64,000 nt of DNA from assembly GCA_000091205.1 (NCBI GenBank), contig AP006498.2; one strand, 5' to 3'. The DNA is from Cyanidioschyzon merolae (taxonomy: Eukaryota). The notes beneath the pieces are model-generated. The model was not told the origin of the DNA and searched no databases. It worked only from the letters and a program-made list of their open reading frames with translations. Shown here piece after piece: positions 3,981-64,000 of this stretch; within the stretch, counting starts at the first letter, position 1; every line of letters starts with the position of its first letter. The translations under genes and the position numbers were made by a program.

Positions 3981-4190
3981 CAAAACAATGCACCGAAAAC
4001 GATCGCGTGATGGAAAAGCAACCTGGGAGAGGAGGCGCACATGCCGAAAACAATGCACCGAAAACAATCGCATGATGATAAACCTCCCCAAGAAAGGAGG
4101 CACACGTGCCGAAAACAATTTACCCAAAGCGATCGCGTGATCATAGACCTCCCCAAGAAGGAAGGCACACGTGCGCAATGCTGCCGAAAA
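3981..4190. repeat. Tandem repeat, ~65-bp unit x3 ('...caccgaaaac(g/a)atcgc(g/a)tgatg...ggaggc(g/a)cac(a/g)tgccgaaaacaat...')
   Basis: Three consecutive, diverged copies are visible by direct reading. They explain the many overlapping short ORFs on both strands at 3738-4178. Confidence 0.6.
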
Positions 4191-15173: not shown

Positions 15174-15915
15174 CCGTATTCCGGAAGCGGCGCGACGACT
15201 GTTGGGTACGCATGCCCCAATGCATCCCTCGCGGGATCTTTGTACAGCATCCAGTCTGCAGGGCATACGACGCAATCGCCAGCCCTGCATCATGGTCGAT
15301 TTCCTCGTGGTTGTAAACGACCGCAAGCCATACAGCATGCGCTTTGCTTGTTGCCTGGAAAGCGATCATCGCTACGATATCCACCGGCATGCAGGGTAAG
15401 CGCTGTGCGAGCTCGCCGTAAAGTGCTCCACCCCAGCGCCAATCGTCTCATATGTTTCATTCTGGAGCACAAGGCGCCGTCCTCAACGGATATGAGCGTC
15501 GTGCACCTCTGGACAACGCCGGGCATGGTAGAGGATCGAAACGTTCCGCGACATGCGGCGGCATGAGCGGAACGCGATTGTGGATCCCGCGTACTCGACG
15601 ACCTCTGGAAAGCGTTGTGAACCCAGGCACTTGGTGGAAACGATGCATAAGGTCGCTGGATTCCGTGGTGTTCAGCAAGATTAGCTCTGTCACATGTCAA
15701 TCATCTTTGAATGCGACGAGCTGCGTGCTGGAGCGCCCACAGGCACCCGGCGCAACGTATCCGGTACACGATGTTGCCATGGGTGACGTCCCCTGGTGTA
15801 AACAATGCACGAGCCGCATCACTGCTGCATAAAGACTAGCCGGTGGAGAAGGTGAAGCTCCGGTTGCTCGATGAATCAAAGCCCAAGGCGAGATGCAGCC
15901 AACGCAATCAATAAA

Positions 15916-16198
15916 GTGATGCTCACCGCACGAAAGAAACCCATTCGGTATCAGACGCATAATTGAGTAGACTTGTATGGATTGTCCGTACAGTGACGCT
16001 CACCGCATGGAACAAACCCATGCGGTATCAGACGCATGATTGAGTAGACTTGTATGGATTGTCCGTACAGTGATGCACACCGCACGAAAGAAACCCATGC
16101 GGTATCAGACGCATAATTGAGTAGACTTGTATGAATTGTCCGTACAGTGATGCTCACCGCACGAAACGAACCCATGCATTATCAGACGCATGATTGAC
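15916..16198. repeat. 77-bp minisatellite, ~3.7 copies, each unit containing a short inverted repeat (ccgcatgg...ccatgcgg)
   Basis: Consecutive units start at 15916, 15993, 16070 and 16147: 'gtgatgctcaccgca(c/t)g(a/g)aa...cccatgcggtatcagacgcat(a/g)attgagtagacttgtatggattgtccgtaca'. Confidence 0.85.
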
Positions 16199-16228
16199 TT
16201 GAATGCCCGCACCGCTTCGTGTGTAAAG

Positions 16229-22635: not shown

Positions 22636-22986
22636 TCAATCCAGCGGCTGTTTGGATATCGTACGCGGCGAGCGCAATCGCTGTGGTGTCGATACCATCA
22701 CCGCCATTTTCGCGAATATATTTTTTGGGACTGAACGTCGTCTGATATTGAGGGCTACGTTGAAGTCTCGGCTGATGAACTCCCTGGGTTTATTGTCTCT
22801 GATGGAACTCACCAGTACATGGAGTTCCCCAATTGGTGCGCGCTGAGCGAATTGGCACCCTGTTAGCGCTTCGTGCTTTTCCATGGCCCAGGCGCTCCGC
22901 TGGCTTTTCTCCATCTCGACCTTCTGAAGTGTACACCCGAGTTCATCCCATAGCTTTTTTATTTCTTCAAATGAACACGCTTGCAC
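22636..22986 (-). pseudogene. Relic C-terminal fragment of a Fanzor/TnpB-like gene (TS/zinc-finger region + RuvC-III)
   Basis: 'ELGCTLQKVEMEKSQ...REFISRDFNVALNIRR' parallels 'ELGCTLQRVEMEKCQ...RIEFVNRDFNAAINVRS' of the 7160-7690 copy. No upstream RuvC-I/II ORFs are present, and a lower-GC ORF-free patch lies at 22990-23800. Confidence 0.55.
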
Positions 22987-24036
22987 ATGACCTCAGGTGA
23001 GGACATTCGCTGAGCCGGCAAGACTTGTGGGATGAAGACGAAATGTGCCCCGGTGTGTCACCGTGTGCTGAACGCTTCAGCGATTCCTCCAGTGGAGCGT
23101 TCATACCGTTTTAAGATGGAAAACGCTCCTTTGATGCGGTTGAACCGCAGAACATACAAAGGAATGAAAAGCAGCTCTATCCCGATAGATCAGGCAAAAG
23201 CTCCAACGCGTAGGGAATGGTGCAGTACCACGTCGTCTAATAGACGGACATCACCAGACGTCAGCGGACAGTCTTCAATGTTTCGACAAAGTCATTGGTG
23301 CTGTTGTCTGTGAACTCTCTACGAGCGAAACTGAGGTAGCCAAATGAATCCACTGCAGTTAGAACATTTAATGACGTCTTAGCTCTCCTCGAGTTCAATC
23401 GCGCACACAACGGGCTCCCTCTCCGCGAATACCAATATACGCTCCGGCCGTTTTATTCGAAGGACGTCTGATCGGCTGAAAAGAACAAACCGACATCCCT
23501 GTACTCTATACAGATCGCAACCTTCCAGGAACATAGTCGTTCTGATTTCCATGGAAGATGGCTGTGCTTGAACTAGGACCCTTTTTTAAGACTCTCTCCC
23601 ACAGGTTTCAGCACCACGAGAATGAGCTATTCAGAAACAGAGAGGCCCGTGGTTGCTAATATCGTCGCTTTGGCTTTCCGCAAGTTGATCAACGGGTCGT
23701 TTTCTACCGTTGACTTCAAGCAGTTACCGAGAATACCGGTGTTTGACGCAGAGCGCATCTACTTGTTTCTTTCAGTATTCCTCAACCATCTGAGTACTGC
23801 GACGTGACTGACCTAAACCAGAAACGCAGTCCTCCCTCAACTGTTCAGTGAAGAATAGATCCTACAGGCATTCTTCTACGATCTATTTTCGGTATATTGC
23901 ATCGTGGTGTCGATCTCCGGCGCACCAGCGTAGCCCCTGTGGAACAGAACTGAGTTGAAGGCCACCAGCGGCACGTGCTGCGATCGCACTGCCCGCCTGC
24001 ACGCGCTGGAGCTCGGCGATCCACATCTGGAAGAAC

Positions 24037-38001: not shown

Positions 38002-38956
38002 CAGGCACCGGCAGTGAAACAGTTCACAGCATATGTTCTGTCAAACAGAAACCGATTATTGATGTGCGGGCTTCATATCAATTTTCATCAGTTTCCGTTG
38101 TAGTGACGGAGTGGAGGTTGCGGAACTGGTTCAGGGACGTAGGCAGGTACCCAAGCGCTGTGTTGCGACGCTAGCGCGCGCATCGCTGGATAGACTGGAA
38201 GAGAACGCTCGTCGACTTCATCCCCTGCATATAATTTGCAGTGAGCGTGCTCATGACGTGCGTTTCGATGTCGCTTGTGATACGGTACACCTATAGGGAA
38301 GAGCGCGCTGTAGAATTGAAGCTTTTCGCAAGTGCACTCGGGCGATGCGTAGACCTTGTCTTCTTCTAGTCATTCACGTATCCAAGATAGTCGTCGCAGG
38401 ACAAATGTGCAACGTTCAATGCCTGCAGTTTTCAATCTAGGCGCTCGAATTCGAGCACTTCATCTCAGACGGAAGCGCAGCTCGCAAACGCAACGGGAAA
38501 CAGTTCATGCACTTCCACATGCTGAACGCCTAGGTGTCTCCACCGTATCATATCTGTAACCTAGGAATTTAACGGTCTGCAGATCCGTTTGATCAATAGT
38601 CACATTCCAGCAGGCGATAAAGTACAGCTTCCAGGCGAACTTCTTGATGAGGAGTGACCCGAACTCTGCACTTGTGAGGGCGAAGCGTTTAGCGCCTTAT
38701 ATCCGGGATCGCCGGAGCTCGAACAATTCGGGCCTGAGGCTGCAAAACTTGGCCAACCTTGGGAAGTCACCGGGAGGCTGTACGCTGAGGGCAGAACCAT
38801 TCTCTGTTATTTATCCGTCATCATGGATGACCAAAGCTATTCTGGGCGTTTTCAGAAAAGCGCTGCAGGTTCGTATGCAAACCTAGACCCAGGTCATACT
38901 CGCGTAAGACTGAACCGGAGCAGATTCACTTTGGTAACTCGGACGCACACGCTGGA

Positions 38957-40290
38957 GCTTTGGTCACTTCCCACTGTGACCAACGCCAGGTTTTTCGAAC
39001 CTTCTCTGAGACTGCTTCGTTTTCCCCCCGCCTGAGTCCGGATAGAAAAACGCGGGCGTCTCCTTTCCCTGTACAACCGTTGTTAGCAGTCGAAAGATAT
39101 TCACGGCAGCTTCCGGGTCCCGGCTTCGATGCTTCCAGCTGCTATCCATGCAATGGTTGCACCGACGGTAGTTGCGTTGAACGCCTCGCTTGCCGTCTCC
39201 ACCTTGTTTCTATGCAACTTCGGTGTACCCTCGGCAACGGTGCCACTTGACTGTGAGCAGGTGTTCTCGAGTGTCCGCCACCACACCCATTCAGAGCGCC
39301 TCGCCATGCCACGTGAGCAACGCTCGCTTCACCGCTCGCTGTACGCTCTGGACGAGTACAGAAGGCTCCCGTGGGTGCCTCTTCCGTGTCTGCAGCCCAG
39401 TGCAGTGGCCCGTGACCATGGGCTCGTTCGAGGTAGTGCCCTCGCCGAGTACTCGCTCTGGTGCACATGCCGGCGCACGCCGTTCTGCTGGACACTAGAA
39501 CTTTGGATCGCGGAGTTCCCGATGACGGAGCAAGGACCGCATGGAAAAGCCAGGCTGGTGAGGAGGCCGTCCAGTCTCGATGCGTCTACGCTCCCTTCGC
39601 GCTACGCGGTGACGCATCGTGTAATGGAAGCGACCGCTGCGGTGATTCGAGGTCTAGTCCATGACCCTTTTGAATGCAGAGAGAAGAGCGGGGAGCCTCT
39701 CGGTGCATGTGCTGTGAACGTTATCAGACTGTTGCCAGGGTCCATATTGTCGACGACCACAAAGGCGGGCGGCTTTGTCATTCGAAAGGCATCGATTATT
39801 TGTCGTGACAAGTGCAGTGAAGCGTAGGCATGAGCTTGTGAACAGGTCGCCAAGCGACGATATCGAGTGTATTTCCCCGTCAGCCCAGCGGTGCGAATTG
39901 TTGCACCCACGAGTTGCCTCGGAACAGAGCGATCGCCATCTCGAAGAATGGATGATTAGAGCATGTCAGGCGTACACCGGGCGGAGCCGCTGGAAGCTTG
40001 TTGGCGTGATTGGATGCAGCAATTGGTTATTGTATGAATCCTCTTTCGAGGGCGTGGCATGTTGTCTTGGTTCCAATGAAGTACGGAATTCCGGCTTCGG
40101 TGCGTCGGAGCATAGGAGCATCGAAGGAAAGAGTCGTTCTGGAAACACGACTGAGCATCCCAGCACTACGTATGCATCCATAAACCCGTATTGCTGCATT
40201 TCGTATCCCAATGCTGTGCTTCTCAAAAAAAAAAGTCCAGAAAGATCGCTTACGAGAAACGGAGCGGGCCGTTCAGCGTGCCATTTTAAT
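38957..40290. repeat. Left arm (~1.33 kb) of a near-identical inverted repeat flanking the O-methyltransferase gene
   Basis: ORFs 39129-39827 (+) and 39775-40341 (+) reappear reverse-complemented at 42452-42904 (-) and 41992-42504 (-) with ~98-99% amino-acid identity. Junctions map to 'ggtcacttcccactgtgacc' (outer) and 'gccattttaat' (inner). Confidence 0.85.
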
Positions 40291-40575
40291 TGGACTTGCC
40301 TACATAGCACTGCACGGGCTAGGCATCGTTTCGCTCGTTGACCACCGTGGCCGCATATTCGTCACCATACATTCCACTCATACGTTCGCAAAGTGTGAAA
40401 CACACTCTATCAAGGGTCTGCTAACCCAAACAAGAAGCGTGTCGCAACGCAGCAGAGCAAATGCCGCCCATCGTTCCAGCCTCCTCCCATTCTGAGCAGT
40501 GGCGCGTGCCAGGAGATAACGTAGGCTCTGGAATCAAACGGGAACCTGCGCTGCCGTGGAATCTCGGGATACTGG

Positions 40576-41607
40576 GTGCTTGCTCAAGGCCAAAGGTCTT
40601 CAAGAGAGCCCCAGATGGTTTTTCTCGAAAAGCTCGACGACTTGCTCAAAGGATATGCGCCTGCTCGTGTTGTTATGACTGGATTCGAGCTCGGTGTCTT
40701 TACGATGATCGCTGAAGGAAAGACTACTGCGGAGGAGGTAGCCCGTGCTGCAGCGTCTTCGACCCGCGGGATGCGCATGCTTCTGGACGCTTTGACTAGT
40801 CTGGAGCTCCTGCAAAAACACAATGATCGCTACCAGCTGGTGCCGGGATCCGAGGCAGCGCTTGTGAAAAGCAGTCCTCAGTACATCGGTTCTATGTGGG
40901 AGACGAACCACCTGTGGAGCGCGTGGAGCGCGCTCACCCAAGTTGTGCGTACAGGCAAGCCCTACACTCGCCTCGAAACCGAGAGCGACGCAGCGCGCTT
41001 TTTCCCTATGCTGATCCGCAGTCTACACGTTTACAACTTGGAGCCAGCCCGTAAACTCGCCGGGCTTCTGTTACCATCACAGATACCACCAGACAGTCGT
41101 GTTCTCGATGTTGCCTGTGGAAGTGCCGTCTGGAGTATCCCTTTCGCGGAAGCGTCTTCAGAGGTACGACTTGATCTCCTTGATTTCGGGGATGCGCTTG
41201 CTGTGGCACGGAGCTATGTTGAACGGCATAAGGTGGATGCCCAGGTTTCGTACATCCAAGGGGACTTGAAACATACAGACTTGGAGAATGATCGATATCA
41301 TCTTATTATTCTCGGGAATATCGTTCATTCGGAAGGGGCAGCCTCATCTCGGGATCTCATTCAACGTTGTGCACGGGCGCTACGCTCAGGCGGCAAGCTC
41401 GCCATTATTGACCTGTTTCCGAATGAGGAGCGCACTGGACCGCCACGGGCAGTTCTCTTCGCCCTTAATATGCTTATTAACACTAGCGAAGGTGACGTTT
41501 TCAGTGTATCCGAGTATAACCAATGGTTCGAGGATGCAGGTTTGAGTGAAGGCACTCTAGTGCAACTGGGATCCACAACTACAGCGCTGCTGGCGGCTAA
41601 ACCCTGA
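40576..41607 (+). CDS. Class I SAM-dependent O-methyltransferase (Methyltransf_2 type with N-terminal dimerisation/winged-helix domain), bacterial secondary-metabolism-like
   Basis: N-terminal dimerisation-like region ('VVMTGFELGVFTMIAEGKTTAEEVA...MRMLLDALTSLELL'). SAM motif I 'RVLDVACGSAVWS'. Motif II 'HLIILGNIVHSEG'. Post-II 'LRSGGKLAIIDLF'. Confidence 0.75.
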   Translation: MLAQGQRSSREPQMVFLEKLDDLLKGYAPARVVMTGFELGVFTMIAEGKTTAEEVARAAASSTRGMRMLLDALTSLELLQKHNDRYQLVPGSEAALVKSSPQYIGSMWETNHLWSAWSALTQVVRTGKPYTRLETESDAARFFPMLIRSLHVYNLEPARKLAGLLLPSQIPPDSRVLDVACGSAVWSIPFAEASSEVRLDLLDFGDALAVARSYVERHKVDAQVSYIQGDLKHTDLENDRYHLIILGNIVHSEGAASSRDLIQRCARALRSGGKLAIIDLFPNEERTGPPRAVLFALNMLINTSEGDVFSVSEYNQWFEDAGLSEGTLVQLGSTTTALLAAKP

Positions 41608-41990: not shown

Positions 41991-43316
41991 ATTAAAATGG
42001 CACGCTGAACGGCCCGCTCCGTTTCTCGTAAGCGATCTTTCTGGACTTTTTTTTGAGAAGCACAGCATTGGGATACGAAATGCAGCAATACGGGTTTATG
42101 GATGCATACGTAGTGCTGGGATGCTCAGTCGTGTTTCCAGAACGACTCTTTCCTTCGATGCTCCTATGCTCCGACGCACCGAAGCCGGAATTCCGTACAT
42201 CATCGGAACCAAGACAACATGCCACGCCCTCGAAAGAGGATTCATACAATAACCAATCGCTGCATCCAATCACGCCAACAAGCTTCCAGCGGCTCCGCCC
42301 GGTGTACGCCTGACATGCTCTAATCATGCATTCTTCGAGATGGCGATCGCTCTGTTCCGAGGCAACTCGTGGGTGCAACAATTCGCACCGCTGGGCTGAC
42401 GGGGAAATACACTCGATATCGTCGCTTGGCGACCTGTTCACAAGCTCATGCCTACGCTTCACTGCACTTGTCACGACAAATAATCGATGCCTTTCGAATG
42501 ACAAAGCCGCCCGCCTTTGTGGTCGTCGACAATATGGAACCTGGCAACAGTCTGATAACGTTCACAGCACATGCACCGAGAGGCTCCCCGCTCTTCTCCC
42601 TGCATTCAAAAGGGTCATGGACTAGACCTCGAATCACCGCAGCGGTCGCTTCCATTACACGATGCGTCACCGCGTAGCGCGAAGGGAGCGTAGACGCATC
42701 GAGACTGGACGGCCTCCTCACCAGCCTGGCTTTTCCATGCGGTCCTTGCTCCGTCATCGGGAACTCCGCGATCCAAAGTTCTAGTGTCCAGCAGAACGGC
42801 GTGCGCCGGCATGTGCACCAGAGCGAGTACTCGGCGAGGGCACTACCTCGAACGAGCCCGTGGTCACGGGCCACTGCACTGGGCTGCAGACCCGGAAGAG
42901 GCACCCACGGGAGCCTTCTCTACTCGTCCAGAGCGTACAGCGAGCGGTGAAGCGAGCGTTGCTCACGTGGCATAGCGAGGCGCTCTGAATAGGTGTGGTG
43001 GCGGACACTCGAGAACACCTGCTCACAGTCAAGTGGCACCGTTGCCGAGGGTACACCGAAGTTGCATAGAAACAAGGTGGAGACGGCAAGCGAGGCGTTC
43101 AACGCAACTACCGTCGGTGCAGCCATTGCATGGATAGCAGCTGGAAGCATCGAAGCCGGGACCCGGAAGCTGCCGTGAATATCTTTCGACTGCTGACAAC
43201 GGTTGTACAGGGAAAGGAGACGCCCGCGTTTTTCTATCCGGACTCAGGCGGGGGAAAACGAAGCAGTCTCAGAGAAGGTTCGAAAAACCTGACGTTGGTC
43301 ACAGTGGGAAGTGACC
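41991..43316. repeat. Right arm (~1.33 kb) of the inverted repeat flanking the O-methyltransferase gene
   Basis: Reverse complement of 38957-40290. Identical ORF pairs (e.g. 39461-39664 equals 42615-42818 at 67/67 aa). Confidence 0.85.
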
Positions 43317-48075: not shown

Positions 48076-51000
48076 CGCTCGTAAGCCGGTACACCCGGGA
48101 GCACTGAATATCGGAATGCCTGCACCGCCACACCCGTTTTTATTTTGTTTGTTTGTTTTTCTTGCAGGTATTCAACATAAGCGGTTTATTGTGTGGATTG
48201 AGGCAAAGTTGCTGGGAGAATTTATGCTAGCGTTCATAGCTTGGGAACAACCGCCTTACTTGGACGAAGTCAGTCGAGATTCGGTCAGCAGCTGAATGAA
48301 CCAATCCACCACCAGTACGTATTCTGAACATCGTGCATCCAAAACAGCACAAGTCAAACGCTATCAAGATGCATATATCCTGGTGAATCCATCATGCTAC
48401 GTACATTGTTTGCGCAATATTATCAAAGACGCTACAGAAAGTAACTTATCCGTGCCTTTGATACAAACGTGGATGAAGAGATACGGATGGACAGCGGAAA
48501 GCCCGCGCTGCGATTCGAGACGCTCGCGCACCCAATCACGGACAATCACGTTCGGTACCGAAACGCGAACGCTTCCTACATGAGCGACCGGATTTCGTGT
48601 CAGTCGCCAAGACTTCATTCAGCAGCTGTGGTAGACCTGTATATGAGCACGCTATGGCGGGCAAACCGCTTCCTGGAAGAAGAGACATGCGAGCATGACG
48701 ACAATATCAGCCCTGGCGGCGATGCTCTTGCCTGGTCGCCTACGAATCGTAACACGGACATGATCGTCCAGTGGGCCATGCTTCGTCGGACCACGTTCCG
48801 TGGCTTCTTCTTCTCACATTTTTCTGCCCGTCTCGTAGATAACGTCACTATCCATCACGCCAGTGCGGTTCCGGAGCATGTATCAGGCAGTAGCACTGAG
48901 CTGCTCTTCGTGTGAGTCTGTTCGTCCTGGTGCAATGCAGCCGAGTGCGTCTTCTCTGTTCTAGAACTGTCTTTTTTCCACTCGCCAATCAATAGACTAG
49001 TCGTTCGCATCCATGGCGCGGAAAGATGCAGGACGTCACAGAGGTTCACATAACAACGGATTCGAACAATGCTCGCCTGGTTTCATTCGCCTTGAAGCAT
49101 CCCATCAAGTATCTGTTCGTACGAGTCCCGGACGCAGGGCAACCGGGCGTCCATATTTCTCTGGAGTTTTTCCATCAGGAATTCGTGTGACAACGCAAGG
49201 GATGCTCAGTGCAGGGGATTCCATGCGGACTGATCCTAAGGATAGAGACATGCACACACGCTTCCTAAAATACTCGGACGCGTCTCCGTGCCATCTCGGG
49301 AATGGAAACGTCTCTAGAGCAGGTGCCAAAGAGTATGAAACGATCCTCAGAATCCAAAACAATTTGCGGGCCAACGTCGAGCGCTCCATGGTGCACATCC
49401 TGTGGACGTTGTACTGTTTTGTTGCCTCACTTTACTGGCCCAGAGAAACAGAAACGGATGGGATAGGTTCCTGAAGTCTGGACCGGAGCAAGTGACAAGC
49501 TGCTGGTGACGGAGCAGCTGGAGCTGCAAGCAAGTTCGGAGCACATGTCGTACCGAGAGCGAGAATCGCCTCTGTTCTGACAAGCTCATCGTGTTGAGCC
49601 CGGACTCGGTTCGACAGACGTCGTATGCAAAGCACGGCTGAAACCTAGTTTCTGCCTTTCTTCATGTTGCGCTACTACGTTTTCGTGAACAGATCCCTAC
49701 ACAGCAAAGCAGATATGCCCTCCGAATCGGAACGAGCTGACCGTTTGATGCGCCCCTGCCACGCAGTCCACATACACCTCATGAAAGCGCATGAAATTGC
49801 CCTAGACATTTGCGTAGTGTGCTTCATGGCCTTCTCGGTGCGCTACGCATACTCTCGGCGAACGCGTATTAAGCATTCGCACTACCTTGCGAGGAGCATT
49901 GGCGGGGCTCGTTCATGATTAACCGTTTGCAGGGAGGATATGGACAGAGGTTCATAGGATCCATAAAAACCTACGGACCATCAGTCTCACTGCACGCTGT
50001 GAAACCCAGGCATGAGTCGAGCAGCGAAACGTACTTTCATTTGTTCAATGTAGACGAAGAGAAAGATAAGGCAGCGGGCATGGGTCCCGGTTTCAAGAGT
50101 ATCGTGGCCATTGCGGCAGCTCTGTGCCAAGACGACAGCGCCAAAGATCCGAAAGCACATGAAGGTGGTTGGCTTTGTCAGGCTGAAGCACGATCGGCAT
50201 TCATGCATGATAGACGCCAGGAGGCACACCAGCAAGCGGAATGACTTCATCAGCGCTTGCCTCAACGCTCTGAGCAATGAATCGGGCGGCGAGGGAGTTC
50301 TCTCTACACCTCTTTCTGAGAGAATAAGCGCGTCGAAACTGCTCTCGCGAAAGATCTTTTGTGCGATTACGTGAGATACCCGCGAGATTTGCCAACGGTT
50401 TCGGCTGCACGGAGCCTAGAGACAGGCATTCGCCGAGTTTTCCAGTCAGCTGCAAAAGGAAATGACCGATCAATCGCGTCGTTTGGTGCTAGCCTATGCC
50501 GCTGGACATGCTGCAGCGTACAATAGCTGCACTGGTGCTCCTTCGACAAGCGCGCGCACCAAGTACAGGAATCGACTCTGAACGAGTACCGTCAATGATT
50601 TCACGACGATTTAGGCGCATCACGACCACGGGTGTACACCAAAAACCTGCATAGAAGAAGAGAGTGAAACAGAGCCGCATCCGCCGGGTTGTGTAGGCAA
50701 GTTGAACTAACGTCGGTTAGGGAAGCAATCAAAGGTGCAAGTCGTGCTTTGGTACGCCTCCGCAAGCAACCATGCCCGCGAGCATGCTCTGCACGGAGAC
50801 TTGAAAGCCTGGATCAACATCCGGAAATATTTCGTGGATCTGAAGCATTCAGCGGCATTGTTTGGAGCAAACTTGTCACGAGAATATTGAGTACTCTTTG
50901 TTCGCATCATGCTGAAATACGGAAGACTTTCGCTGAGATGAAAACAGCACCCAGTCTACGAAGCATTGGATTCCAGCCCAGAAGAAGGCACAGGACCGGA

Positions 51001-54202: not shown

Positions 54203-56390
54203 CGTTCGAGGGCGCTGTGACTGTCATGCATTGCTTGATCGCTGCAATTTGTGTGTCCTGATCATACGTTCCAATAATCCCGCTCAGGCCGGGTGTGGAA
54301 TGTGACGCTGCCTGGCCTCGAAGAGTTCCTCGCATGTTGCTGGCGGCCAAGAAACATGCAGGGTGATGTGTTCGCCCAGGCTCGCGCTCGGCAGGCGTTT
54401 CAAGTGCATCGCGTGCAACCGCGTTGCTAGCGCCCAAAGTTAGCAACTGAGGGTCCTCAAAGCGCTTACGTATAGAGCTTGTAAAGACTTGTTTCATCCA
54501 GCTTTGCAGGTGCTAGCGTTGTCACCAATCGAAACGAAGCACTCAGCTCCGTGGCTTCGCCTTTGTTGTGGAGTCGGCAAGAGCGGAAGAGCGTTGCCCG
54601 GCAGCGCCTTGTCGACTATTCTCGTAGCAGTCACGAAGCAACTTCAGAGGTTCCTGGCAAGCGGACCAGTCTCGGTCGTGCTCGCCAAGGCAGGCCTCTA
54701 GTCGCTCGTACGCCTCCCTGCACCCGTGCAACTCGAGAACCTGCTCTATATCGCAAGACGTCGACTCAGAGTTTGTACGCATTTTGTTCTATAGCATTCG
54801 AGATAGATACCGCCTGAGCCTAGACTTGTACGCTATCAAGCTCTTGACGCAGCGCGCTTGCCGAAATAGGTTTTAACGGCGAGTACGCAGTCGAACGGAT
54901 GAACGACGCGCGGTTGCAGGGGTCGGCGCGTCGCGGATGCTGCGCGCAGCTTCCAGCTCAAGATCGCTTCTCCGCAGTGCGGCATCGCCGCTACCACAGT
55001 TATGAAGACGATCTTGTCTCGCGATCCCGATAGAGCACAGTGTAGTGCCGGGACGGTGGACTTGCGGACCGACGATATCGATCCAAACCGTCGGTAGAAG
55101 AACGTCCGCTGCACCGATTGGTTGCTGTGATGCATATCAACTCGAAGTTCGGGCCTAAGAAGCACCTGGACTGGTGTCAGCGCTATGGAGTTCGAGAAAC
55201 TAGCACCACTTGGAGTTGGTAACGCGTGCCGCGCTGGGTTGACGGTCTCTGGGCTGTTTGTAAGTTCGGCAAGTTTTGATATGTCTGTCGAGGTACCAGC
55301 GTGCGCCTTGCTCTGGAGATTTTGTAGAGCGTCATGGATAGCTCGAAGCCACCATGAACGCTTGATTTTTTGAAGTAAACGTTCTGCTTCTCGGATTTTC
55401 GGTGGTGCACCCGACGAAAAGACCCGTAAGACCTGAGTACGCGAAAGGAAAACGTGACCAAGGAACATTATCCAAGTGTAGCATGAGCGTTCTCAGCGAT
55501 TGCCCACTTCTCCATCATCGTTCAAACCGTCGCTTGTTTTTCTAATGCCACGAGCTCGTGGCTGGCTCACATCGAACTAGGCAGCACCCCAGGTGCAATG
55601 ATCCCAAAATATCAACAGGATGATGCGCCCAGCGCTGCGGATGAAATCATTACGGTTCGATTGCATCGTCCAAAACGCCTGTTGGACAATGTTTACATCT
55701 GAAACGCTCCCAGAAGACTGAAATCAGAGAGCATGAGCTCTTTTAAGCGGCGCCTTCCGTCATGTGCCTGGATGAATCGCAGGCTCGCGGTGACGATCTC
55801 AAACCAAGAGACTGTCACGAGCGATCGTTGATCGAGGACGCCTGCAGGCTTTGGCACCACAGCGTTCCAGCCGGAATGCGCATCAGGCGTCCAGGTCGGG
55901 CTCGCTGAACGATGTCGTGCTGTTTCGACGAGACTGCTATATGGGAATCGACTTGCACGTTATCGCGAGTGGAGCAGTCTCTACATGCAGTCGCGATTGC
56001 TCATGCATGCGCGCGTTATCCTGAAACAAGCTTGGAAACGCAGGATCTGTTGCAGCGCTTCAGTGGGCCCGAAACGGCTTATTACAGGGTCGTTCACCCT
56101 GCAACTTTAGCTGAGACGCGCTACCACGAGTGTGATCCATCTATCGTCATTAGTATGATGAAAAAAAATTGCGCCTATTGCATTAACCAGTGATGCTTCC
56201 TACGGTCCATGATTCGAACGATTCACTTTTCCCATCCTTTTCCGTCAAGCACGAAATCCGGGTGGAAAATACGCTTGCAGCATCCTTATATCACAACTTG
56301 AGCCTAGAGGTTGCACGCGCGAGTCCATCCATCATTGTCCGTGGAGAGTAGCCGCTGGAAAGGGCATTCCATTTCCGACGCCGCAGTCAG

Positions 56391-57252
56391 CACGAATGTC
56401 AGACATAAATGGGAGGGATCCACGAATAGAACGCGGGCGGTGGCTCTGAAATTAGTGTGCCTCGCAATGCCACTGGCACCAGCGTTGGCGGGCCTATGCT
56501 GCGACTGCGTCCTAGTCCCCGCTCCGCCATCTCCGACTTGGAATACGCAAGTCGCTCGCATGCCCCCGATTCCTTCAGTAGGAATCTGGTGATTTCGGTG
56601 GCAGCCTCCGGGCGCCGATGTCGCAGTTCCCGACTGTTGTCGACGCGTTTCGTGTGCAGACGATGGTTGCATCTATGCGTTGCGTGTCATTCACATGCGC
56701 CTTACATTCAGCCTCACTGCGACCTTCGCAACCGGGTGACACCTGACTTTGGACGCGTTTCCCCGTATGCCTACATCATGCTGTCCTGACCCAAAGGCCA
56801 CGAAGACGTTGCGCGTGAACACTTGCTGCATCTCTCGGTACACGCTTTGTACGTGTACAGAAGGCTCGCCTCGATGCCCGCCTGAACGTTTGCGCCCGGT
56901 GCTGCGCGCTACGATCACGGGTTTCTTCTGGGCGATCCTGTAGGGCGCGTATACTGTCCGCTACACGCGCTCGCTCTTCTACTCGCAAAGCGATTTCTGG
57001 GAAGCGAAGTTGACCGTGATGTACCGAGCACCGGAGGGGAATCCTTGCTGAAGATCAAGCAGCGTAATAAGGATGCGTCTAGGCTCCCTGCATTCGTGCA
57101 GAGCTTCGATGCATGCTGCCATGCAAGCGATCGCTGCGATGACTCAAGTCCACGCCCGAGACCCATTTTCACGCGAACAGAAGAGACCAGAGCGCCTGGA
57201 AGCATATTCCGTGGTAGGTATCATGCCATTGGCGAATGTCGTTTCGCCGATG
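56391..57252. repeat. Left arm (~0.86 kb) of second near-identical inverted repeat pair
   Basis: ORFs 56915-57205 (-), 57045-57359 (+), 56457-56789 (+) and 56304-56672 (-) recur reverse-complemented at 61319-61609, 61132-61479, 61735-62067 and 61852-62313. Junctions map to 'cacgaatgtcagac' (outer) and 'gtcgtttc(g/a)ccga' (inner). Confidence 0.85.
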
Positions 57253-57870
57253 GCGACTCGGAAATTCGGATTTGTCTTTCGAACGGAAGCGATTACTTGA
57301 CTTGCCAAAGCTCAGCCAACCCTCTGCATGAATCTGTTCAACAAGTCGTCTCGAGATGAGGTATAGCTCTTTCTCGTCGTCATTCCGGCGGCGCGAAACT
57401 CTTCAACGAAGAGTGCCTATGGAAGCGAACGATCGAAAACTTCAATAACCCGTGATTTGAGCACGCTACTAGCCATGAAAGCAGTAGAGTGCGGACTTGT
57501 ACACCTGAATAGGATCATGGTATTCAATGTTTTACAAACCCTTGTTCGAAGTCGTCGCGTATCATCTTGATTCCTATGACGTGAGGAATTCCAGACGCAA
57601 AGCGTTGAAGCAGCCACCCACTGAAAAACAGCCGCGAATCCTTAGAAGTCGTACGAATCCATACGCCGTGATTCCTAGACTTTGAATACCGACGCTTTGC
57701 ATCTATACATGGACCGGGAGCAAATCGAATTGCAGGAACCGAGCGAGCAGCCCAATATTCCTCATAAATCCGACACGGGCATAGCGTGCGGTCGAACACG
57801 GGTCAGTGGTGGAGCATCCGCTGGATGCACCTGTCCTGGCGATCGCCAAGTCGATACTGTTTGCCTATCT

Positions 57871-60078
57871 TTAGAGTATAAAGAAACGCACAATGCGTTC
57901 AGCATAGGGACGGACCAGTTCCAGCTGCTGAACGATGTCATTCTTGATAACCAGGTTCACGAAGATGTAGGCCGCGATGACAGCAAGTGCCAAGCGACCG
58001 AGAACTTTCTCCGCCAGACCGGAACGGACAACATCCCGTACGTTCGTACGGATCCAGGTCACGAGCTCCTCGTCGCTCATGACACTAAGCTGCTCCCGAA
58101 TGAGTTTCAGTTCATCGGCCAGTGGCTTTGGAGCAATCGTGCCTGTTGTCTTGTCGTTTTCAAGCACCGGAGGTTTTGTGTCGGATATGGACCGAGCGCT
58201 TGCCGACCAGTCTCTGGTGTTAGCGTCGATGGGCACTTGCGTTGTGCTTGCTGCGCGCATGTCTTGAATGCTTTGTTGTAAACGAAACACGACATCCTCG
58301 CGTTTCTTGAGTCGCTCAACAGCCGCCTTCCAGAGCTTCGCACCCTCGGTTTCGGCGGTGTAGAGCTCACCGTCCCAATCGTAGCCACCAGTGAAAAGCT
58401 GGGAGAGTTCGCGGCGCAAGTTTTCGTCGAGAGGGCGCCCACGTAGACTTGTTATCCCACGCTTTTCTGCTTCTCGAATTGAGAATTCCGCATCTGGGTT
58501 CGACGGATCCAAGATTCCTTCTAGGAAGGGCGCCAGCGCCTTTCTCGCTGAAGCAAGGTCCTCGACTGCTGCTTCCATAAAGGCGCGACGTTGTTCAGGA
58601 GTGGCCAGTCGCATGGCGCGCTCTGCCTCTTCCGTGGGTTGCTCCGTCAGTTTCGATAGGGACGCATATTTGCACAGAATGGCTTCAATGTCGAGCCTCT
58701 CGCTTTTCAGCTTCTGTTCGAACTCACTAAAGTTACGCTTGCATATCTCCTCCAGCTTCCGCTCAAACTCTTCTTGATATGTTTCCCAGGACAGTTGGGG
58801 GTCTTCAGTGATCACCTCGTCATCGGGACGCCCGAGCGCCGCCAAACGTCGCTGGAACTGAGCCCAAGCCGTCGCTACACCACTTGCCACGGCAGCTGTC
58901 TCCGAGGCGTGCTCGGTGTGGATACGCCGCAGTGCTGTTTCGAGCTGTGCGCTTGTCATCTTCAGAGTCTTGTTTGCCTGCTCGCGGCTGTAGCCCATGA
59001 ACGCGTTTGCGCGCGCAGCTAGATACAAGAGCTGCAAGCGCAAAAGCAACAACAAGTTGCCGAAAACGCGAATCACGAGCGCTGCTGTATGCTGCGGCTC
59101 AGCCTCGCTGGACGGATCTCTAGTCCAGAAAGCGCTCTGCGTTCGTGAAGATAACTCTGGTTGCGTGCCCCTGACGTGACGCACGCGATCGCCGGCAAAG
59201 GTTCCAGATTTGACAAGGTTTCGAGATAGCGTTCCGACCTGTGCCCTGAATTCACGAGCGACTCGAGTTCCAGCGTTCGCGAAATAGCGTAACGCCTGTG
59301 ATGCGATGCTCAAAAACTTCTGACTCGCCTCGTGGAACAGGCTTACATTCGCACTGGCCACGACGAGGAGCGCTGCTGAGATAATCAAGAAGAAGAGTAG
59401 CGGAATGATGTTGGCGAGGGCTTTCCTGTTCGACGGCGATACTGAAGCACCAGAGGGATTCGTCACGATCATGGCTATTGTTGCCCGTTGAGCTTCGACT
59501 CGTGCATTGGTGTAGAGCATGCTCGCCGTCGACGCTCGAGTCTCTCCCGGGAACGGGTCACCACTAGGGATAGATACCGCTCGGCAGCATGCAGCAGTCC
59601 TTGCCTTCTTTGCGCAACCATGACGCTGTATGGTCACCATCGCGCGCCTTTTGCGAGCATAGCTATCTGTTTCAGAAAATTTTTCCCCAGAGAGCAACTT
59701 AGTTTGAAGCTTGATCCTTTTGTGCACAGTGCGTTTCGGCGCCTGCTCGTTCAATTTTCGTACGAAATAAGGCTCACGGAATGCAAATACACTCAGCAGG
59801 TCTTTGCGTCGATGCTCGGACTTGAGCGTCAATCGCCATCGACAAGGCAGCGCGTTTTCGCAAAAGCGCCACGTGCGTATACCTCCTAAAAACGAACAGA
59901 GAAAGCCGTTTCGTGTGGCGGCATTCTTGCTTATCGTAAACTCGGCCCCTAAACTTTGTTTTGCCGGTTGGAAAACGCGCAACCGTTCGCTTGTGGTTGC
60001 TAGCGACCCTGGGTTCGCTGCCCGCTCGCCAGCACCGAGCAGCCCCAGTGACTGGTGCAGCCAAGCTAACTCGCCCAT
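57871..60078 (-). CDS. Hypothetical coiled-coil protein with two transmembrane segments
   Basis: Hydrophobic 'ALANIIPLLFFLIISAALLVVASA' and C-terminal 'LALAVIAAYIFVNLVI'. Long heptad-like acidic/basic stretches lie between. The first ~185 codons look non-coding, so the likely start is the Met at about 59520 ('MLYTNARVEAQRA'). Confidence 0.4.
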   Translation of the reverse strand: MGELAWLHQSLGLLGAGERAANPGSLATTSERLRVFQPAKQSLGAEFTISKNAATRNGFLCSFLGGIRTWRFCENALPCRWRLTLKSEHRRKDLLSVFAFREPYFVRKLNEQAPKRTVHKRIKLQTKLLSGEKFSETDSYARKRRAMVTIQRHGCAKKARTAACCRAVSIPSGDPFPGETRASTASMLYTNARVEAQRATIAMIVTNPSGASVSPSNRKALANIIPLLFFLIISAALLVVASANVSLFHEASQKFLSIASQALRYFANAGTRVAREFRAQVGTLSRNLVKSGTFAGDRVRHVRGTQPELSSRTQSAFWTRDPSSEAEPQHTAALVIRVFGNLLLLLRLQLLYLAARANAFMGYSREQANKTLKMTSAQLETALRRIHTEHASETAAVASGVATAWAQFQRRLAALGRPDDEVITEDPQLSWETYQEEFERKLEEICKRNFSEFEQKLKSERLDIEAILCKYASLSKLTEQPTEEAERAMRLATPEQRRAFMEAAVEDLASARKALAPFLEGILDPSNPDAEFSIREAEKRGITSLRGRPLDENLRRELSQLFTGGYDWDGELYTAETEGAKLWKAAVERLKKREDVVFRLQQSIQDMRAASTTQVPIDANTRDWSASARSISDTKPPVLENDKTTGTIAPKPLADELKLIREQLSVMSDEELVTWIRTNVRDVVRSGLAEKVLGRLALAVIAAYIFVNLVIKNDIVQQLELVRPYAERIVRFFIL

Positions 60079-60268
60079 GGTATGTGCACGTTCACCTCAG
60101 CTTCTAGTTTCTTTCGCACACGATGTCTCTGCATGAGGCTGAACCGTCGCCCCTCGTATCCTATGAAACGTACTTTTGAGCGTTTCCGCGCACCCAGCAC
60201 TGCCTTCGCCGCCCTAGCACTATTCAAAAGCGCGCTCTTTGAGCGGCCTTCAAATCGGCAATCCGTAA

Positions 60269-60898
60269 GAGCATCCGCGCGATCGACGATGACTGCTGAG
60301 CACTCAGCGATGCCTAGGTCAGACTTGTCTCAAATGCAAGTCTTTCACCTCAATTGTGTTCCACAGCTAGGCGCTTGTCATGAACTGCTTTTTCGCGGTT
60401 TATAGGCGACGCCTTCCAAATGCGTCCATTTGATGACATGAAAAGGCTAAGGGGAAGGTATGGACATGCAGGAGGGGGTTTCGAGGGACCGATGTTGCCG
60501 TGTGCTGGGAGAAGTACGAAAAATATCCCCTTTTCACGGACTATCAAGCAAAGAAGAGCAAGTGACGTAGAAGAGTACGAAAAGAGCATCCGCGCGATCG
60601 ACGATGACTGATGAGCACTCAGCGATGCCTAGGTCAGACTTGTCTCAAATGCAAGTCTTTCACCTCAATTGTGTTCCACAGCTAGGCGCTTGTCATGAAC
60701 TGCTTTTTCGCGGTTTATAGGCGACGCCTTCCAAATGCGTCCATTTGATGACATGAAAAGGCTAAGGGGAAGGTATGGACATGCAGGAGGGGGTTTCGAG
60801 GGACCGATGTTGCCGTGTGCTGGGTGAAGTACGAAAAATATCCCCTTTTCACGGACTATCAAGCAAAGAAGAGCAAGTGACGTAGAAGAGTACGAAGA
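60269..60898. repeat. Tandem duplication, 315-bp unit x2 (near-identical)
   Basis: 'gagcatccgcgcgatcgacgatgactg(c/a)tgagcactcagcgatgcctaggtcagacttgtctcaaatgcaag...' starts at 60269 and again at 60584. It generates twin ORFs 60350-60589 (-) and 60665-61096 (-) sharing a 60-aa C-terminus. Confidence 0.85.
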
Positions 60899-60956
60899 AA
60901 GAGAGTGGAGATAGACGAGGAAGGTTTTCGTCCCACGAGCCAATGACGGGGCTGTA

Positions 60957-61280
60957 ATGGCACAAAGGACAAGCGTTCGAGGAATCCTTACAGAGGTGAA
61001 TCGAATCAGCTGCACTGCATACATGAAATTCGTAAAACGAGACTTCAAAGCCGCCATCAATGTCAGACGATGTCTGGTACTGAAGACGAGACCCACTGAG
61101 CTGAACCGAGAGAACTTCTTGAGGCGTCAGCTCAGACTCGAAGTTTGCGCGGAGAAACTGAAACCAATAGCAGGCGGCCGGTCCAAAAAGCAGGCAGACC
61201 TCTGCGAAAGGATGCGCGTATACAACCTACGTGATCGCGAGCTGCTCTTCTTTTTGCCGACCATAGATAAGATTCGGTGA
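60957..61280 (+). pseudogene. Relic C-terminal fragment of a Fanzor/TnpB-like gene (RuvC-III 'RDFKAAINVRR' + tail)
   Basis: 'KFVKRDFKAAINVRRC...LRLEVCAEKLKPIAGGRSKK' aligns with the 7160-7690 copy ('EFVNRDFNAAINVRS...LKVELYEKKLEAVVGAGRER'). Its stop codon (61278-61280) coincides with the inner boundary of the right inverted-repeat arm. Confidence 0.55.
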
Positions 61281-62133
61281 AACGACATTTGCCAATGGCA
61301 TGATACCTACCACGGAATATGCTTCCAGGCGCTATGGTCTCTTCTGTTCGCGTGAAAATGGGTCTCGGGCGTGGACTTGAGTCATCGCAGCGATCGCTTG
61401 CATGGCAGCATGCATCGAAGCTCTGCACGAATGCAGGGAGCCTAGACGCATCCTTATTACGCTGCTTGATCTTCAGCAAGGATTCCCCTCCGGTGCTCGG
61501 TACATCACGGTCAACTTCGCTTCCCAGAAATCGCTTTGCGAGTAGAAGAGCGAGCGCGTGTAGCGGACAGTATACGCGCCCTACAGGATCGCCCAGAAGA
61601 AACCCGTGATCGTAGCGCGCAGCACCGGGCGCAAACGTTCAGGCGGGCATCGAGGCGAGCCTTCTGTACACGTACAAAGCGTGTACCGAGAGATGCAGCA
61701 AGTGTTCACGCGCAACGTCTTCGTGGCCTTTGGGTCAGGACAGCATGCTGTAGGCATACGGGGAAACGCGTCCAAAGTCAGGTGTCACCCGGTTGCGAAG
61801 GTCGCAGTGAGGCTGAATGTAAGGCGCATGTGAATGACACGCAACGCATAGATGCAACCATCGTCTGCACACGAAACGCGTCGACAACAGTCGGGAACTG
61901 CGACATCGGCGCCCGGAGGCTGCCACCGAAATCACCAGATTCCTACTGAAGGAATCGGGGGCATGCGAGCGACTTGCGTATTCCAAGTCGGAGATGGCGG
62001 AGCGGGGACTAGGACGCAGTCGCAGCATAGGCCCGCCAACGCTGGTGCCAGTGGCATTGCGAGGCACACTAATTTCAGAGCCACCGCCCGCGTTCTATTC
62101 GTGGATCCCTCCCATTTATGTCTGACATTCGTG
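61278..62133. repeat. Right arm (~0.86 kb) of second inverted repeat pair
   Basis: Reverse complement of 56391-57252. For example, 96/96 aa with one substitution between 56915-57205 and 61319-61609. Confidence 0.85.
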
Positions 62134-62775
62134 AAGAGCGCGCCGCGTCGACTACTTTGCCGCGATGCGCGCCGCTTTCGTGGCGACGGTGTCGCGGATA
62201 CTCGCAGGCACACGACCTTCGGTGGATCGTTGCCATCCCAGGCACGTCCGCTGGCAATCGTTCGGCCATGTATGCGACGCATCACGAGTTCCGCCTGGAA
62301 TGTGAAGCGATGAACGCCATCCGATCGCGATCATAGGATCGACATCGATGCCCTGAAATCCACACACAGCATCTCATACGCTTGCCTGACCGTGCTCCCT
62401 TTACCCCAGCGATCTGGTATCCAGAACAGATGCCGTCTCTTCGCCGAGGCACCTTCCATGACGCAGAACCTCTAACCCGCGCCTACGCTCTCTCCCTAGT
62501 TCCATCGGTCCTATTCAAAGCTCGCCGATACCGAATTGATAAATGTCATAGTTTGTGCGCTGCACCAAGAGTGCAGGTCGGGCGAGATGGATTCGCGCTT
62601 CCACCGCGTCGGCTGCTTGCCGTCGTCAGCGCTGGAACGACGCGGCACCTTCGCGCAGCAGGGCGATCTTGTGGCGCTCGTCGCCCGCGCAGGCTGCTGG
62701 GCAGCGTGAGCAGCCAGCGGATACGATCCCGTCGTACACAGCTGCAGCGGTACGAGGTATTCTGGTTGTAATTCG

Positions 62776-63558
62776 GTGATCAGGGTGTTCAAGATGTTCG
62801 GGTTTGTTATCCCAGCGAATAGGGCGAGGTTGCACCTTCACTACCCACAACCGAAGAACAATAACGGTTGTGTCTCAAGGCGTCGGTTAGGAGCGCTGCA
62901 AAAACCGCAGCTGCGCAAGCCCTGCCCGGTGGTCGCGTGCGCTCCGGGCAACAATACGCCGCCGTCGGTACCCGAAAAGACTACGGCTCGTCTGTCGCTC
63001 GCGCAGCGCTTGTCGATACCGCTGCTTACGATGACGACAACGATACCTGGCGTTGTTCTGGCTGCAGAGGAAACGGCGGCCCCGGAGTCACCTCTGAAAG
63101 CGCTCTTCAAAAGCTTGCCGCTGTCGCTTGTGCATCCACTGGTCATGGACGGTGTCCTGCTCGGAACGCTGTACGCATTCTATCTGGGGTACCAGGCGCG
63201 TACGATGCGTACGACCAAAGACAAGGAACTGAAGATGAAGCTGGCGCAGGCCAAACCCGGCGATCGGCACTATCAAATCGCGAGCATCCTTCTCGCCGTG
63301 ATGACGGTGACCACATTCGAGGGCATGGCCAATACGTACACTCGTACTGGGAAACTCTTTCCGGGACCGCATCTGTACGTTGGTCTGGCCTCGGTGGCGC
63401 TCATGAGCATGATGGCTAGCCTGGCACCGGCGATGCGGCGGGGGAATACCGCAGCGCGCAACGCACATTTTGCCATGGCGTTCGCAGTTACTGGCGGGCT
63501 TGTCTGGCAGCTTCAGAGCGGTTTCGAAATCGTGCTTAAGCTTTTAGGATGGAAGTAG
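62776..63558 (+). CDS. DUF4079-like (cyanobacterial/plastid-type) four-helix membrane protein with long N-terminal extension
   Basis: 'HPLVMDGVLLGTLYAFYLGYQARTMR' followed by three further hydrophobic helices. The pattern resembles DUF4079 as I remember it. The N-terminal 100 aa are presequence-like. Confidence 0.4.
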   Translation: MIRVFKMFGFVIPANRARLHLHYPQPKNNNGCVSRRRLGALQKPQLRKPCPVVACAPGNNTPPSVPEKTTARLSLAQRLSIPLLTMTTTIPGVVLAAEETAAPESPLKALFKSLPLSLVHPLVMDGVLLGTLYAFYLGYQARTMRTTKDKELKMKLAQAKPGDRHYQIASILLAVMTVTTFEGMANTYTRTGKLFPGPHLYVGLASVALMSMMASLAPAMRRGNTAARNAHFAMAFAVTGGLVWQLQSGFEIVLKLLGWK

Positions 63559-64000
63559 ATTGAGGTCCATCGTAAAGTGCTGTCGCAGGATCATGACAAC
63601 ATGATCGCAGCCGAGAAAAAGCGATCGACATAGAAGCACCAGAGCAGCATCACTCGGGCGGAGCGGTGATTTTCCCGCGCGACACGCATCGCATCATGCG
63701 TGTCTGCGCACGGATGCCGGCACCGATGCGTGCACACGTGCACGCATGTCATTCGAGTCGACAGCACACCGGCCGCACCTCGCCGGATGATGATACTTTG
63801 GAGCGCTTTACTTTTGATGATGCCTAGTTAAAGTTGCGAGCCAGTGCCTAGTTGTCATCGCTAAAATGCTGCGACGGCATGACGGGTAACGCACCGTTGC
63901 ATTGCAGCAACTGAGACGAGATGTTTCGGACCCGGCGCCTCGCTGAACACCGGTACAGCGCAGTCGCGAGTCGATCCGAACCAAACCATGCAACCAGTGA

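Follow-up and report, generated by a model that had tools for sequence, protein, structure and literature searches.

A Fanzor1 relic beside a truncated mariner-like element at the edge of an inverted repeat on Cyanidioschyzon merolae chromosome 16

Why should the stop codon of a TnpB-like reading frame coincide with the inner edge of a long inverted repeat? The case arises in the window analyzed here, a 64,000-nucleotide (nt) stretch of DNA from Cyanidioschyzon merolae (GCA_000091205.1, contig AP006498.2). An initial annotation, made from the letters alone, flagged an open reading frame (ORF; 60957-61280, plus strand) as a TnpB-like relic and proposed that the coincidence may mark an element terminus, or the insertion of a Fanzor element into or next to a transposon with long terminal inverted repeats. 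The right end of TnpB and Fanzor elements reportedly has a characteristic architecture that includes the omega-RNA, as in IS200/IS605, IS607, and the Fanzor work of 2023. We find that the locus is ordinary transposon debris, in which a dead Fanzor1 fragment lies against a truncated mariner-like element (herein X). The flagged ORF is not a gene, a guide-RNA locus, or a new kind of element, and its Fanzor1 family has been known since 2013. The locus also brings out X, through which C. merolae turns out to have another Fanzor-derived lineage, not reported before and concealed within a deletion derivative of mariner-like type.

The window is part of chromosome 16 of C. merolae 10D; seven of its long ORFs exactly match annotated 10D proteins encoded on the 908,485-bp chromosome with the CMP genes. 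As the 10D nuclear genome is finished, the repeats described below are unlikely to be assembly artifacts. The features of the flagged region are the following.

60957-61280, plus strand: ORF of 107 residues; the first ∼83 are relic coding sequence, the remainder read-through of the relic's 3′ noncoding part
61278-61280, plus strand: TGA stop of this ORF; in the list of arm mismatches, 61278 has T only in the right arm of the inverted repeat, against C in the left
60944-61205, plus strand: Fanzor1 (CMe-1-like) C-terminal coding relic with the RuvC-III motif KRDFKAAINV, equivalent to CMe-1A consensus ∼2818-3084
60267-60896, plus strand: 5′ segment of the relic element, present as two 315-bp copies in tandem and equivalent to the CMe-1A 5′ untranslated region (UTR) and start-codon region, consensus ∼789-969
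61206-61273, plus strand: 68 nt that separate the last detectable Fanzor homology from the arm; probably the relic element's own 3′ end in diverged form

A dead Fanzor1 fragment under the flagged frame

The frame itself is as first described, a plus-strand ORF of 107 codons closed by TGA at 61278-61280. It carries no gene annotation, its exact sequence is absent from the protein collection searched, and Pfam returned no match for it. A protein search with the ORF found one relative only, its 97%-identical ortholog P0195, so that no further copies of this type (c3-type) could be collected in that way. The alignment with a second copy in the window (7163-7690, minus strand) was borne out, at 36% identity over 83 residues (BLASTP E = 1e-13), with 'KRDFKAAINVRR' pairing with 'NRDFNAAINVRS' and 'LRLEVCAEKLKPIAGG' with 'LKVELYEKKLEAVVGAG'.

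A Fanzor1 family of C. merolae, CMe-1, was described in 2013 (Bao & Jurka, PMC3627910). Its CMe-1A consensus is 3169 bp long and has ∼150 old copies that are ∼80% identical to it; the element has no terminal inverted repeats (TIRs), its target duplication was not established, and its 5′ 635 bp are in common with TE-N2_CMe (PMC3627910). The Fanzor motif is given as D-X(125,275)-[TS][TS]-X-X-C4 zinc finger-X(5,50)-RD (PMC3627910). The window contains a full-length, decayed CMe-1A (c1; 10457-7244, minus strand; 82-85% identical to the published consensus). Pfam and Protein Data Bank (PDB) sequence searches with the reconstructed c1 protein gave no match, a profile of homologs being needed; a database search with the same protein gave 48 relatives, mostly from hot-spring metagenomes.

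The relic was matched with two profiles that include no sequence from the window. For the family C terminus, 80 metagenome loci were fetched and 71 tails aligned, and 56 distinct metagenome CMe-1 tails make up the tail DNA profile. Positions 4-238 of its 326 match 60975-61205 (nhmmer E = 1.8e-28). The Fanzor1 protein profile (A1), built from 11 diverse homologs, matches the relic at positions 562-640 of 646 (hmmsearch E = 6.9e-16). This profile also matches the solved Fanzor 1 of Parasitella parasitica (9cf0; E = 9.6e-10) in the RuvC-I region and at the 'DEFRTS...RD.NAA.N' end. The TnpB-like label is thus sharpened by two independent routes to that of a Fanzor1/TnpB C-terminal relic.

The relic comes from the same genome and the same protein family as CMe-1A and matches its C-terminal coding and 5′UTR/ATG regions; it differs in being internally deleted (∼1030-2808 missing) and in its identity to the consensus, ∼67% in DNA (blastn) and 48% in protein over the family C terminus. 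Such identities point to an older or separate CMe-1 sublineage as its source. KRDFKAAINV at 61035-61064 supplies the C-terminal RD (RuvC-III) in a family-homologous context. The RuvC-I aspartate and the RuvC-II/[TS][TS] segment are absent upstream of the relic, with no profile match in any frame of 60079-60940; the sequence upstream of 60944 corresponds instead to the CMe-1A 5′UTR/ATG region. The C4 zinc finger, degenerate ('SYTHHELGCTLQRVEMEKCQR') in CMe-1 proteins as a whole, is missing from the relic. What was flagged is a piece of a Fanzor and not a Fanzor gene.

The 5′UTR/ATG region is itself present twice, 60339-60523 and 60654-60838 each matching CMe-1A consensus 789-969 at 67% within repeat units that are 99% identical at a spacing of 315. 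A faint match had suggested that this 315-bp repeat is Fanzor coding sequence ('...RAFANFFNQL...VVAYGAG'), a reading dropped because the published consensus shows it to be the 5′UTR/ATG region. The same architecture, consensus 789-969/1027 joined to ∼2809-3084, occurs in the window and at loci L043 and L010. At L043, a metagenome contig, consensus 789-1027 is directly followed by ∼2809-3079, L010 is arranged similarly, and the window and L043 derivatives are ∼72-75% identical over the whole unit. The relic is thus part of an internally deleted, non-autonomous CMe-1-like element (∼60267-61250) present at several loci, with part of its 5′ piece tandemly duplicated in the window. TE-N2_CMe is likewise a short multicopy CMe-1A derivative lacking Fanzor protein coding, but it consists of the 5′ 635 bp of CMe-1A, whereas the c3-type joins ∼775-1027 to the last ∼350 nt. 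In the assemblies of L004, L006, and L093 a single 315-bp unit is seen; the copy number may vary or be collapsed there.

Detectable family homology of the relic ends at 61205, 68 nt short of the arm, and the final 88 positions of the tail model, including the terminal palindrome of CMe-1, are missing. Compared with CMe-1A up to its 3′ terminus (...CGTTTTTCTTTTGAAAGGCG), the relic shows homology only to consensus ∼789-969 and ∼2818-3084. Alignment of 61206-61300 with the last 89 nt of CMe-1A is not significant, its score being reached by 76 of 300 shuffles; for c1, none of 300 shuffles reached the score. The first ∼45-57 nt of 61206-61273 do resemble the corresponding stretch of L043.

The inverted repeat consists of two copies of element X

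The arms of the inverted repeat (56379-57250 and 61274-62145; herein I2) are 872 nt long, 99% complementary, and 4023 nt apart. Over a core of 860 nt, 856 positions are identical (99.5%), and the match is near-perfect from 61274 (TCGG) to 62133; in the 100 nt outside either arm boundary, identity falls to a background level of 47-55%. The right arm had been taken to begin at 61278. The stop codon does overlap the arm edge, but identity already starts at 61274 and 61278 is a mismatch. Searches of the window with a model of X (∼1430 positions; element ∼1.43 kb) place both arms and several other stretches in one element family, whose copies together make up 8.6% of the window.

61274-62144: right arm, 5′-truncated X; model match on the minus strand, coding sense plus; model positions 6-859 (nhmmer E = 1.2e-200)
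56380-57824: left arm plus 574 nt, full-length X; model match on the plus strand, coding sense minus; model positions 5-1424 (nhmmer)
38886-40340 (plus strand) and 43385-41952 (minus strand): X copies of the other inverted repeat (nhmmer with the X model)
4-328: X fragment (search of the window with the X model)
57871-60078, minus strand: CMP105C, hypothetical protein of 735 residues; exact match to BAM81750.1 / XP_005537786.1

The two large inverted repeats in the window have related arms: with relaxed scoring they match at 59% over 1170 nt, run colinearly, and point the same way from inner to outer end, the match running between the left X copy and the X copy at 38969-40112. The X unit (1.3-1.4 kb, often full length) was found in at least 12 distinct metagenome loci and occurs in at least 12 of ∼55 sampled Fanzor flanks. 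In 16 control segments and three shuffles there were no X-like matches save where other repeats lie, which speaks against an artifact of relaxed BLAST scoring. An origin of X as the 5′ part of CMe-1A was rejected as well, since neither the 5′ regions of full-length copies nor the published consensus contain a match to X. Several copies have short TIR-like ends, with the outer end C(A/C)CATGTCAGA..AAATGGAAC and the reverse-complemented inner end CACCCGTGTCGGGTCGAAATGGAAC; the TIRs take the form ...CCCGTGTCAGA..AAATGGAAC....

Two coding segments are recognizable in X. Its consensus encodes a Tc1/IS630-type segment that matches Pfam DDE_3 (E = 2.3e-9; 37.7 bits against a cutoff of 28.6; profile positions 3-117 of 146). 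Immediately behind this segment lies a match to the TnpB zinc ribbon, Cas12f1-like_TNB (E = 3.1e-7, above the curated cutoff). X lacks the part of the DDE domain that holds the third catalytic residue; its transposase sequence stops just past the second catalytic D (DNIAFHKS), where the last third of a Fanzor follows directly. With peptides of the X consensus, tblastn locates two relics in the right arm, one DDE_3-like (61279-61581) and one TnpB-like (starting at 61597 and reaching at least 61788), and the left copy reads 'NPNFRVAIGET...'. Among the metagenome relatives, P0192 is an intact-looking Tc1/IS630-type transposase (VAIDETGFD...LMDNIAFHKS...PPYSPWFNPI), P0193 and P0187 are Fanzor-type proteins (GLDPGR..., a C-x2-C ribbon, and NRDFNAAINI), and P0183 is a single continuous ORF across the transposase and Fanzor halves. 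All copies of X seen are decayed, at ∼60% pairwise identity, and no TA target-site duplication is readable at this divergence.

We conclude that X arose by internal deletion from a mariner/Tc1 element with a Fanzor1 gene as cargo. Elements of this kind, PUl-1 and PGv-1, are known from other organisms, and the 2013 Fanzor survey contains no X-like family for C. merolae (PMC3627910). X resembles PUl-1 and PGv-1 in its DDE_3 segment, short TIR-like ends, and Fanzor zinc ribbon and RuvC-III on the same strand, and its gene order is that of PUl-1 in the published sequence (PMC3627910); it differs in length (1.43 kb against ∼3.6 kb) and in its truncated transposase, fused to the last third of a Fanzor. 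One could go further and see in X an undescribed, highly abundant Cyanidioschyzon element whose founder encoded an in-frame transposase-Fanzor chimera, and whose inverted pairs are gene-converted and may flip the genes they enclose. We offer this combined proposal as a doubtful one. Were it true, the founder would have fused a mariner transposase (the DNA-binding part and two-thirds of the DDE domain) to the RuvC-II/zinc-ribbon/RuvC-III end of a Fanzor. X in any case makes up a sizeable portion of the non-genic DNA in a compact genome.

The repeat is two separate X copies, one of them truncated, and not one long-TIR transposon as had been suggested. A single transposon spanning 56379-62145, with CMP105C and a captured Fanzor fragment as cargo, would be in keeping with two 0.87-kb inverted arms around a 4-kb segment, and a second repeat with related arms in the window encloses a methyltransferase gene. 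Each arm, however, is a copy of an independent 1.43-kb element with its own TIR-like ends that occurs singly at many loci, the left copy extends 574 nt past the arm edge, and the sequences outside the arms show no relationship. Between the two repeats, the arms are also only ∼59% alike, against 99% within pairs, and neither a target-site duplication nor a direct repeat is visible at the flanks of 56379-62145. We consider such a transposon very improbable. As every X copy has a TnpB-like tail of its own, each arm holds a decayed one, so that the arm sequence is never free of TnpB-like sequence.

The boundaries of the arms follow those of X. The outer edge (56391/62133) is the TIR tip of X, which in the right copy lies at ∼62133-62144, and the 99% match of the left X copy to the right arm is confined to 56379/56391-57250. 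The inner edge (57250/61274) falls in the first catalytic-D motif, which is 'FVAIDET' in the consensus, 'VAIGET' in the left copy, and '(F)GET' in the right, and the TGA of the flagged ORF overlaps the codons of this motif. In the region of 61278-61280 the X consensus has GAC-GAA, the D-E of the DDE 'AIDET' motif, and a single C-to-T change at 61278 created the stop. With C at this position, as in the left arm and the X consensus, the frame would be ∼25 codons longer and run into the arm; the T is also present in contigs L006 and L093.

Proteins of the CMe-1 family end at '...GGRSKKAGRRLHVSWR...', which puts the equivalent family stop at ∼61230 and makes the final 20-25 codons of the flagged ORF read-through. 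Past the family stop the frame is noncoding, and noncoding sequence should hold one stop in every ∼20 codons; the overlap of stop codon and arm edge is therefore true but not beyond chance. What had looked like a meaningful Fanzor end is a read-through stop that one substitution produced, and the ORF stays open by chance across a dead fragment of a known Fanzor1 family.

Origin of the junction and history of the arms

Comparison with a related lineage bears on the age of the arms. In contig L093 (JGI 3300005861, Ga0080006_1155930), whose lineage is 1.4-1.9% diverged, the relic meets the arm at the same junction and the arm is complete. At 17 sites the two 10D arms agree and that of L093 departs from both, as against four sites at which the 10D arms differ from each other. 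Both arms thus predate the split of the lineages, yet are alike within a genome, and on these comparisons they evolve in concert by gene conversion. The second inverted pair of the window (I1; 38962-40290 and 41991-43316) is 98.7% identical over 1329 nt and encloses a single O-methyltransferase gene (40576-41607). Its 99% tract lies inside two X copies and stops short of both X termini, where the terminal TIR regions differ, which again suggests gene conversion.

A recent inverted segmental duplication, in which the right arm would be a fresh partial copy of the left region with its breakpoint beside the relic by chance, also accounts for 99.5% identity over 860 nt and for the lack of a diverged X continuing past the right-side arm. 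From I2 alone the two processes are indistinguishable, and the argument for conversion rests on L093. The outer boundary, though, is the X TIR tip, as expected of a separate transposon copy or a conversion tract and not of a duplication that broke at random. The junction and both arms are present in L093 (∼1.5-2% diverged) and in L006, and the arms of 10D differ at four sites against 17 between lineages. We regard a recent duplication as improbable.

Concerted evolution and flip-flop inversion are known at large inverted repeats, as in plastid genomes. The arms described here share with plastid inverted repeats that they are more alike within a genome than orthologous arms are between lineages, and that one contig has the enclosed segment in the opposite orientation; they differ in being nuclear and in consisting of 0.87-kb arms made of transposon copies. 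The contig in question is L093, in which the 4-kb inter-arm segment is, by comparison with 10D (window 56376-64000), inverted relative to the flanks, in the order DUF4079 flank, arm, rest of X, CMP105C, relic, and arm. As L093 is a single short-read metagenome contig, this order may reflect either a genuine inversion by way of the arms or an assembly error at the 0.87-kb repeat; DUF4079-side contigs in other samples all break inside the arm and did not confirm it. Inverted X pairs thus evolve in concert and may invert enclosed genes, L093 giving a hint of this for CMP105C. Contig L004 was rejected as a structural variant lacking the right arm. In this metagenome contig the CMP105C locus runs into a relic locus paralogous to it through ∼29 shared nt (L004 2955-3584 against L010 5259-5616, beside CRT-like and RPL3 genes on another 10D chromosome), and the contig is probably chimeric, or else recombinant.

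On balance, we consider it probable that the locus is layered debris that includes a nested insertion of the Fanzor derivative into X. The identity of each part, the boundaries, and the concerted evolution of the arms are shown by the comparisons above; that the junction arose by insertion and not by deletion, and that events took the following order, we infer. CMP105C would have had an old X copy on its right side and another X copy, in the opposite orientation, on its left. A short non-autonomous CMe-1 derivative, in which the 5′UTR with its start codon leads straight into the final ∼90 codons and 3′ end, would have inserted into the right-hand copy, and its 3′ end would now meet X at 61273/61274, inside the first catalytic-D motif. 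Later, the 5′ part of the insertion and the inner third of X may have been deleted and a 315-bp piece tandemly duplicated. Gene conversion between the inverted copies keeps the 860 bp that they have in common ∼99.5% identical, in a tract whose outer limit is the X TIR tip, beyond which there is no homology, and whose inner limit is the point of truncation and insertion.

Three junctions of a Fanzor 3′ end with an interrupted X were seen. In the window, the relic is followed by 68 nt and then by X position 859 in minus orientation; at L043, the tail of a c3-type relic comes within a few nt of X position 253 in plus orientation; at L049/L028, a young CMe-1A with a defined 3′ end at 741 meets X position 1360 in minus orientation. 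Since the window and L043 relics can be aligned for ∼45-57 nt beyond tail-model position 238, the 3′ end of the c3-type subfamily would lie ∼0-25 nt from 61273, which makes nested insertion into X the most economical reading. An element terminus near the arm edge, as first proposed, is thus retained, in that the relic's own 3′ end probably lies within ∼0-25 nt of it; so is insertion into or next to a transposon, the L043 derivative also abutting a truncated X at another position and in another orientation.

Several points weigh against nested insertion. The last 68 nt of the relic match nothing significantly, its terminus is not defined to the base, and L043 is the sole supporting copy. The inner third of the right X was not found beyond the relic, and the empty site is not reconstructable. 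Three junctions among ∼55 distinct tails are about what random insertion would give, X being ∼9% of the window, and are no evidence for targeting. At one locus, moreover, a deletion fusing two neighboring relics would look alike. Such a fusion, in which relic and right X were neighbors and one deletion removed the 3′ tip of the former and the inner third of the latter, fits the missing last 88 CMe-1 positions with the terminal palindrome, the absence of the lost X part anywhere nearby, and a 5′ side of the relic that is truncated and rearranged too. Old relics at three other loci, however, also lose homology at tail-model position 237-242, which favors lineage-specific 3′ ends over a local deletion, and the same-subfamily copy at L043 ends a few nt from another truncated X; that two deletions independently stopped at one and the same relic position is unlikely. 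We therefore judge fusion by deletion rather unlikely, while giving it more weight than duplication or a single long-TIR transposon, and retain nested insertion as the preferred origin of the junction.

RNA tests and further repeats in the window

A shared RNA-like or guide-scaffold segment had been anticipated at the 3′ ends of the TnpB-like copies, and none was found. Aligned locally with the 3′ flanks of the CMe-1 copies c1, c2, and c4, 61206-61400 did not score above shuffles, and an Rfam search of 56000-62500 returned nothing. On the 3′ side of c1 a thioredoxin-like host gene begins, on that of the relic lies X, and no conserved segment is shared between the 3′ flanks of the TnpB-like copies. 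The stretches of the window that match the tail model are listed below.

7540-7243: c1 (E = 6e-83)
60975-61205: relic
22831-22730: c2
50791-50835: c4, faint

Across the aligned tails, conservation stays at ∼0.9 up to and beyond the stop codon and reaches background ∼60 nt past it, at ...CGTCGTTCGACTTTCGAACGGCG, and this drop coincides with the end of the published CMe-1A consensus. The intact CMe-1A gene thus resembles TnpB and Fanzor right ends in stopping ∼60 nt before the 3′ end of the element, with a palindrome there, whereas the end of the relic is unrecognizable and the structure is unproven even in the intact family. In their last ∼25 nt, CMe-1A copies (L013-L092) end in the palindrome CGTTCGA-CTT-TCGAACG, with variants such as CGTTTTTCTTTTGAAAGGCG, and a second palindrome spans the stop codon. 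In 24 intact CMe-1A tails the consensus fold is weak (-8.2 kcal/mol), with two palindromic hairpins and covariation not above controls or shuffles, so that a role of the palindromes as RNA or DNA hairpins is unproven.

That the ORF or an RNA over 61200-61400 still acts, as a Fanzor-derived protein or a guide RNA with the arm sequence as its guide, is scarcely credible. The 107 open codons, the retained RuvC-III RD, and ∼99% conservation of the junction in two other lineages might be cited for it. That conservation, however, is no higher than in the neighboring noncoding DNA, the regions of RuvC-I, RuvC-II, and the zinc finger are gone, the ORF is unannotated with an ortholog as its only relative, and there is no Rfam match, shared 3′ segment, or recognizable CMe-1 3′ end. 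The region contains no working nuclease and no guide RNA.

CMP105C is the sole annotated gene between the arms of the 0.87-kb inverted repeat; a Pfam search found no domain in its product. The region upstream of it (60079-60896) is largely the tandem-duplicated 5′UTR/ATG segment of the Fanzor derivative, in divergent orientation.

The other CMe-1 copies have features of their own. In c1 there are three in-frame stops and one frameshift, as well as a 75-bp tandem duplication (8190-8339) that repeats an 11-residue peptide; its 3′ end lies ∼20 nt from the first possible start (7220) of the thioredoxin-like host ORF 6429-7220. The ∼970 nt preceding relic c2, a C-terminal Fanzor remnant (22730-22946, minus strand), are 67% identical to the stretch before the L010 relic (window 22730-23914; L010 4205-5176), which suggests another repeated composite unit. 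A fragment at 33982-34206 matches CMe-1A nt 36-254 and is TE-N2_CMe-like. Beside c4, ∼49500-50850 is a further dispersed repeat, with ∼60% matches of 400-790 nt at three metagenome loci. Tandem repeats unrelated to the relic occur at 15912-16202 and 3982-4176, as three overlapping 137-nt copies spaced 77 nt and as three 65-nt units.

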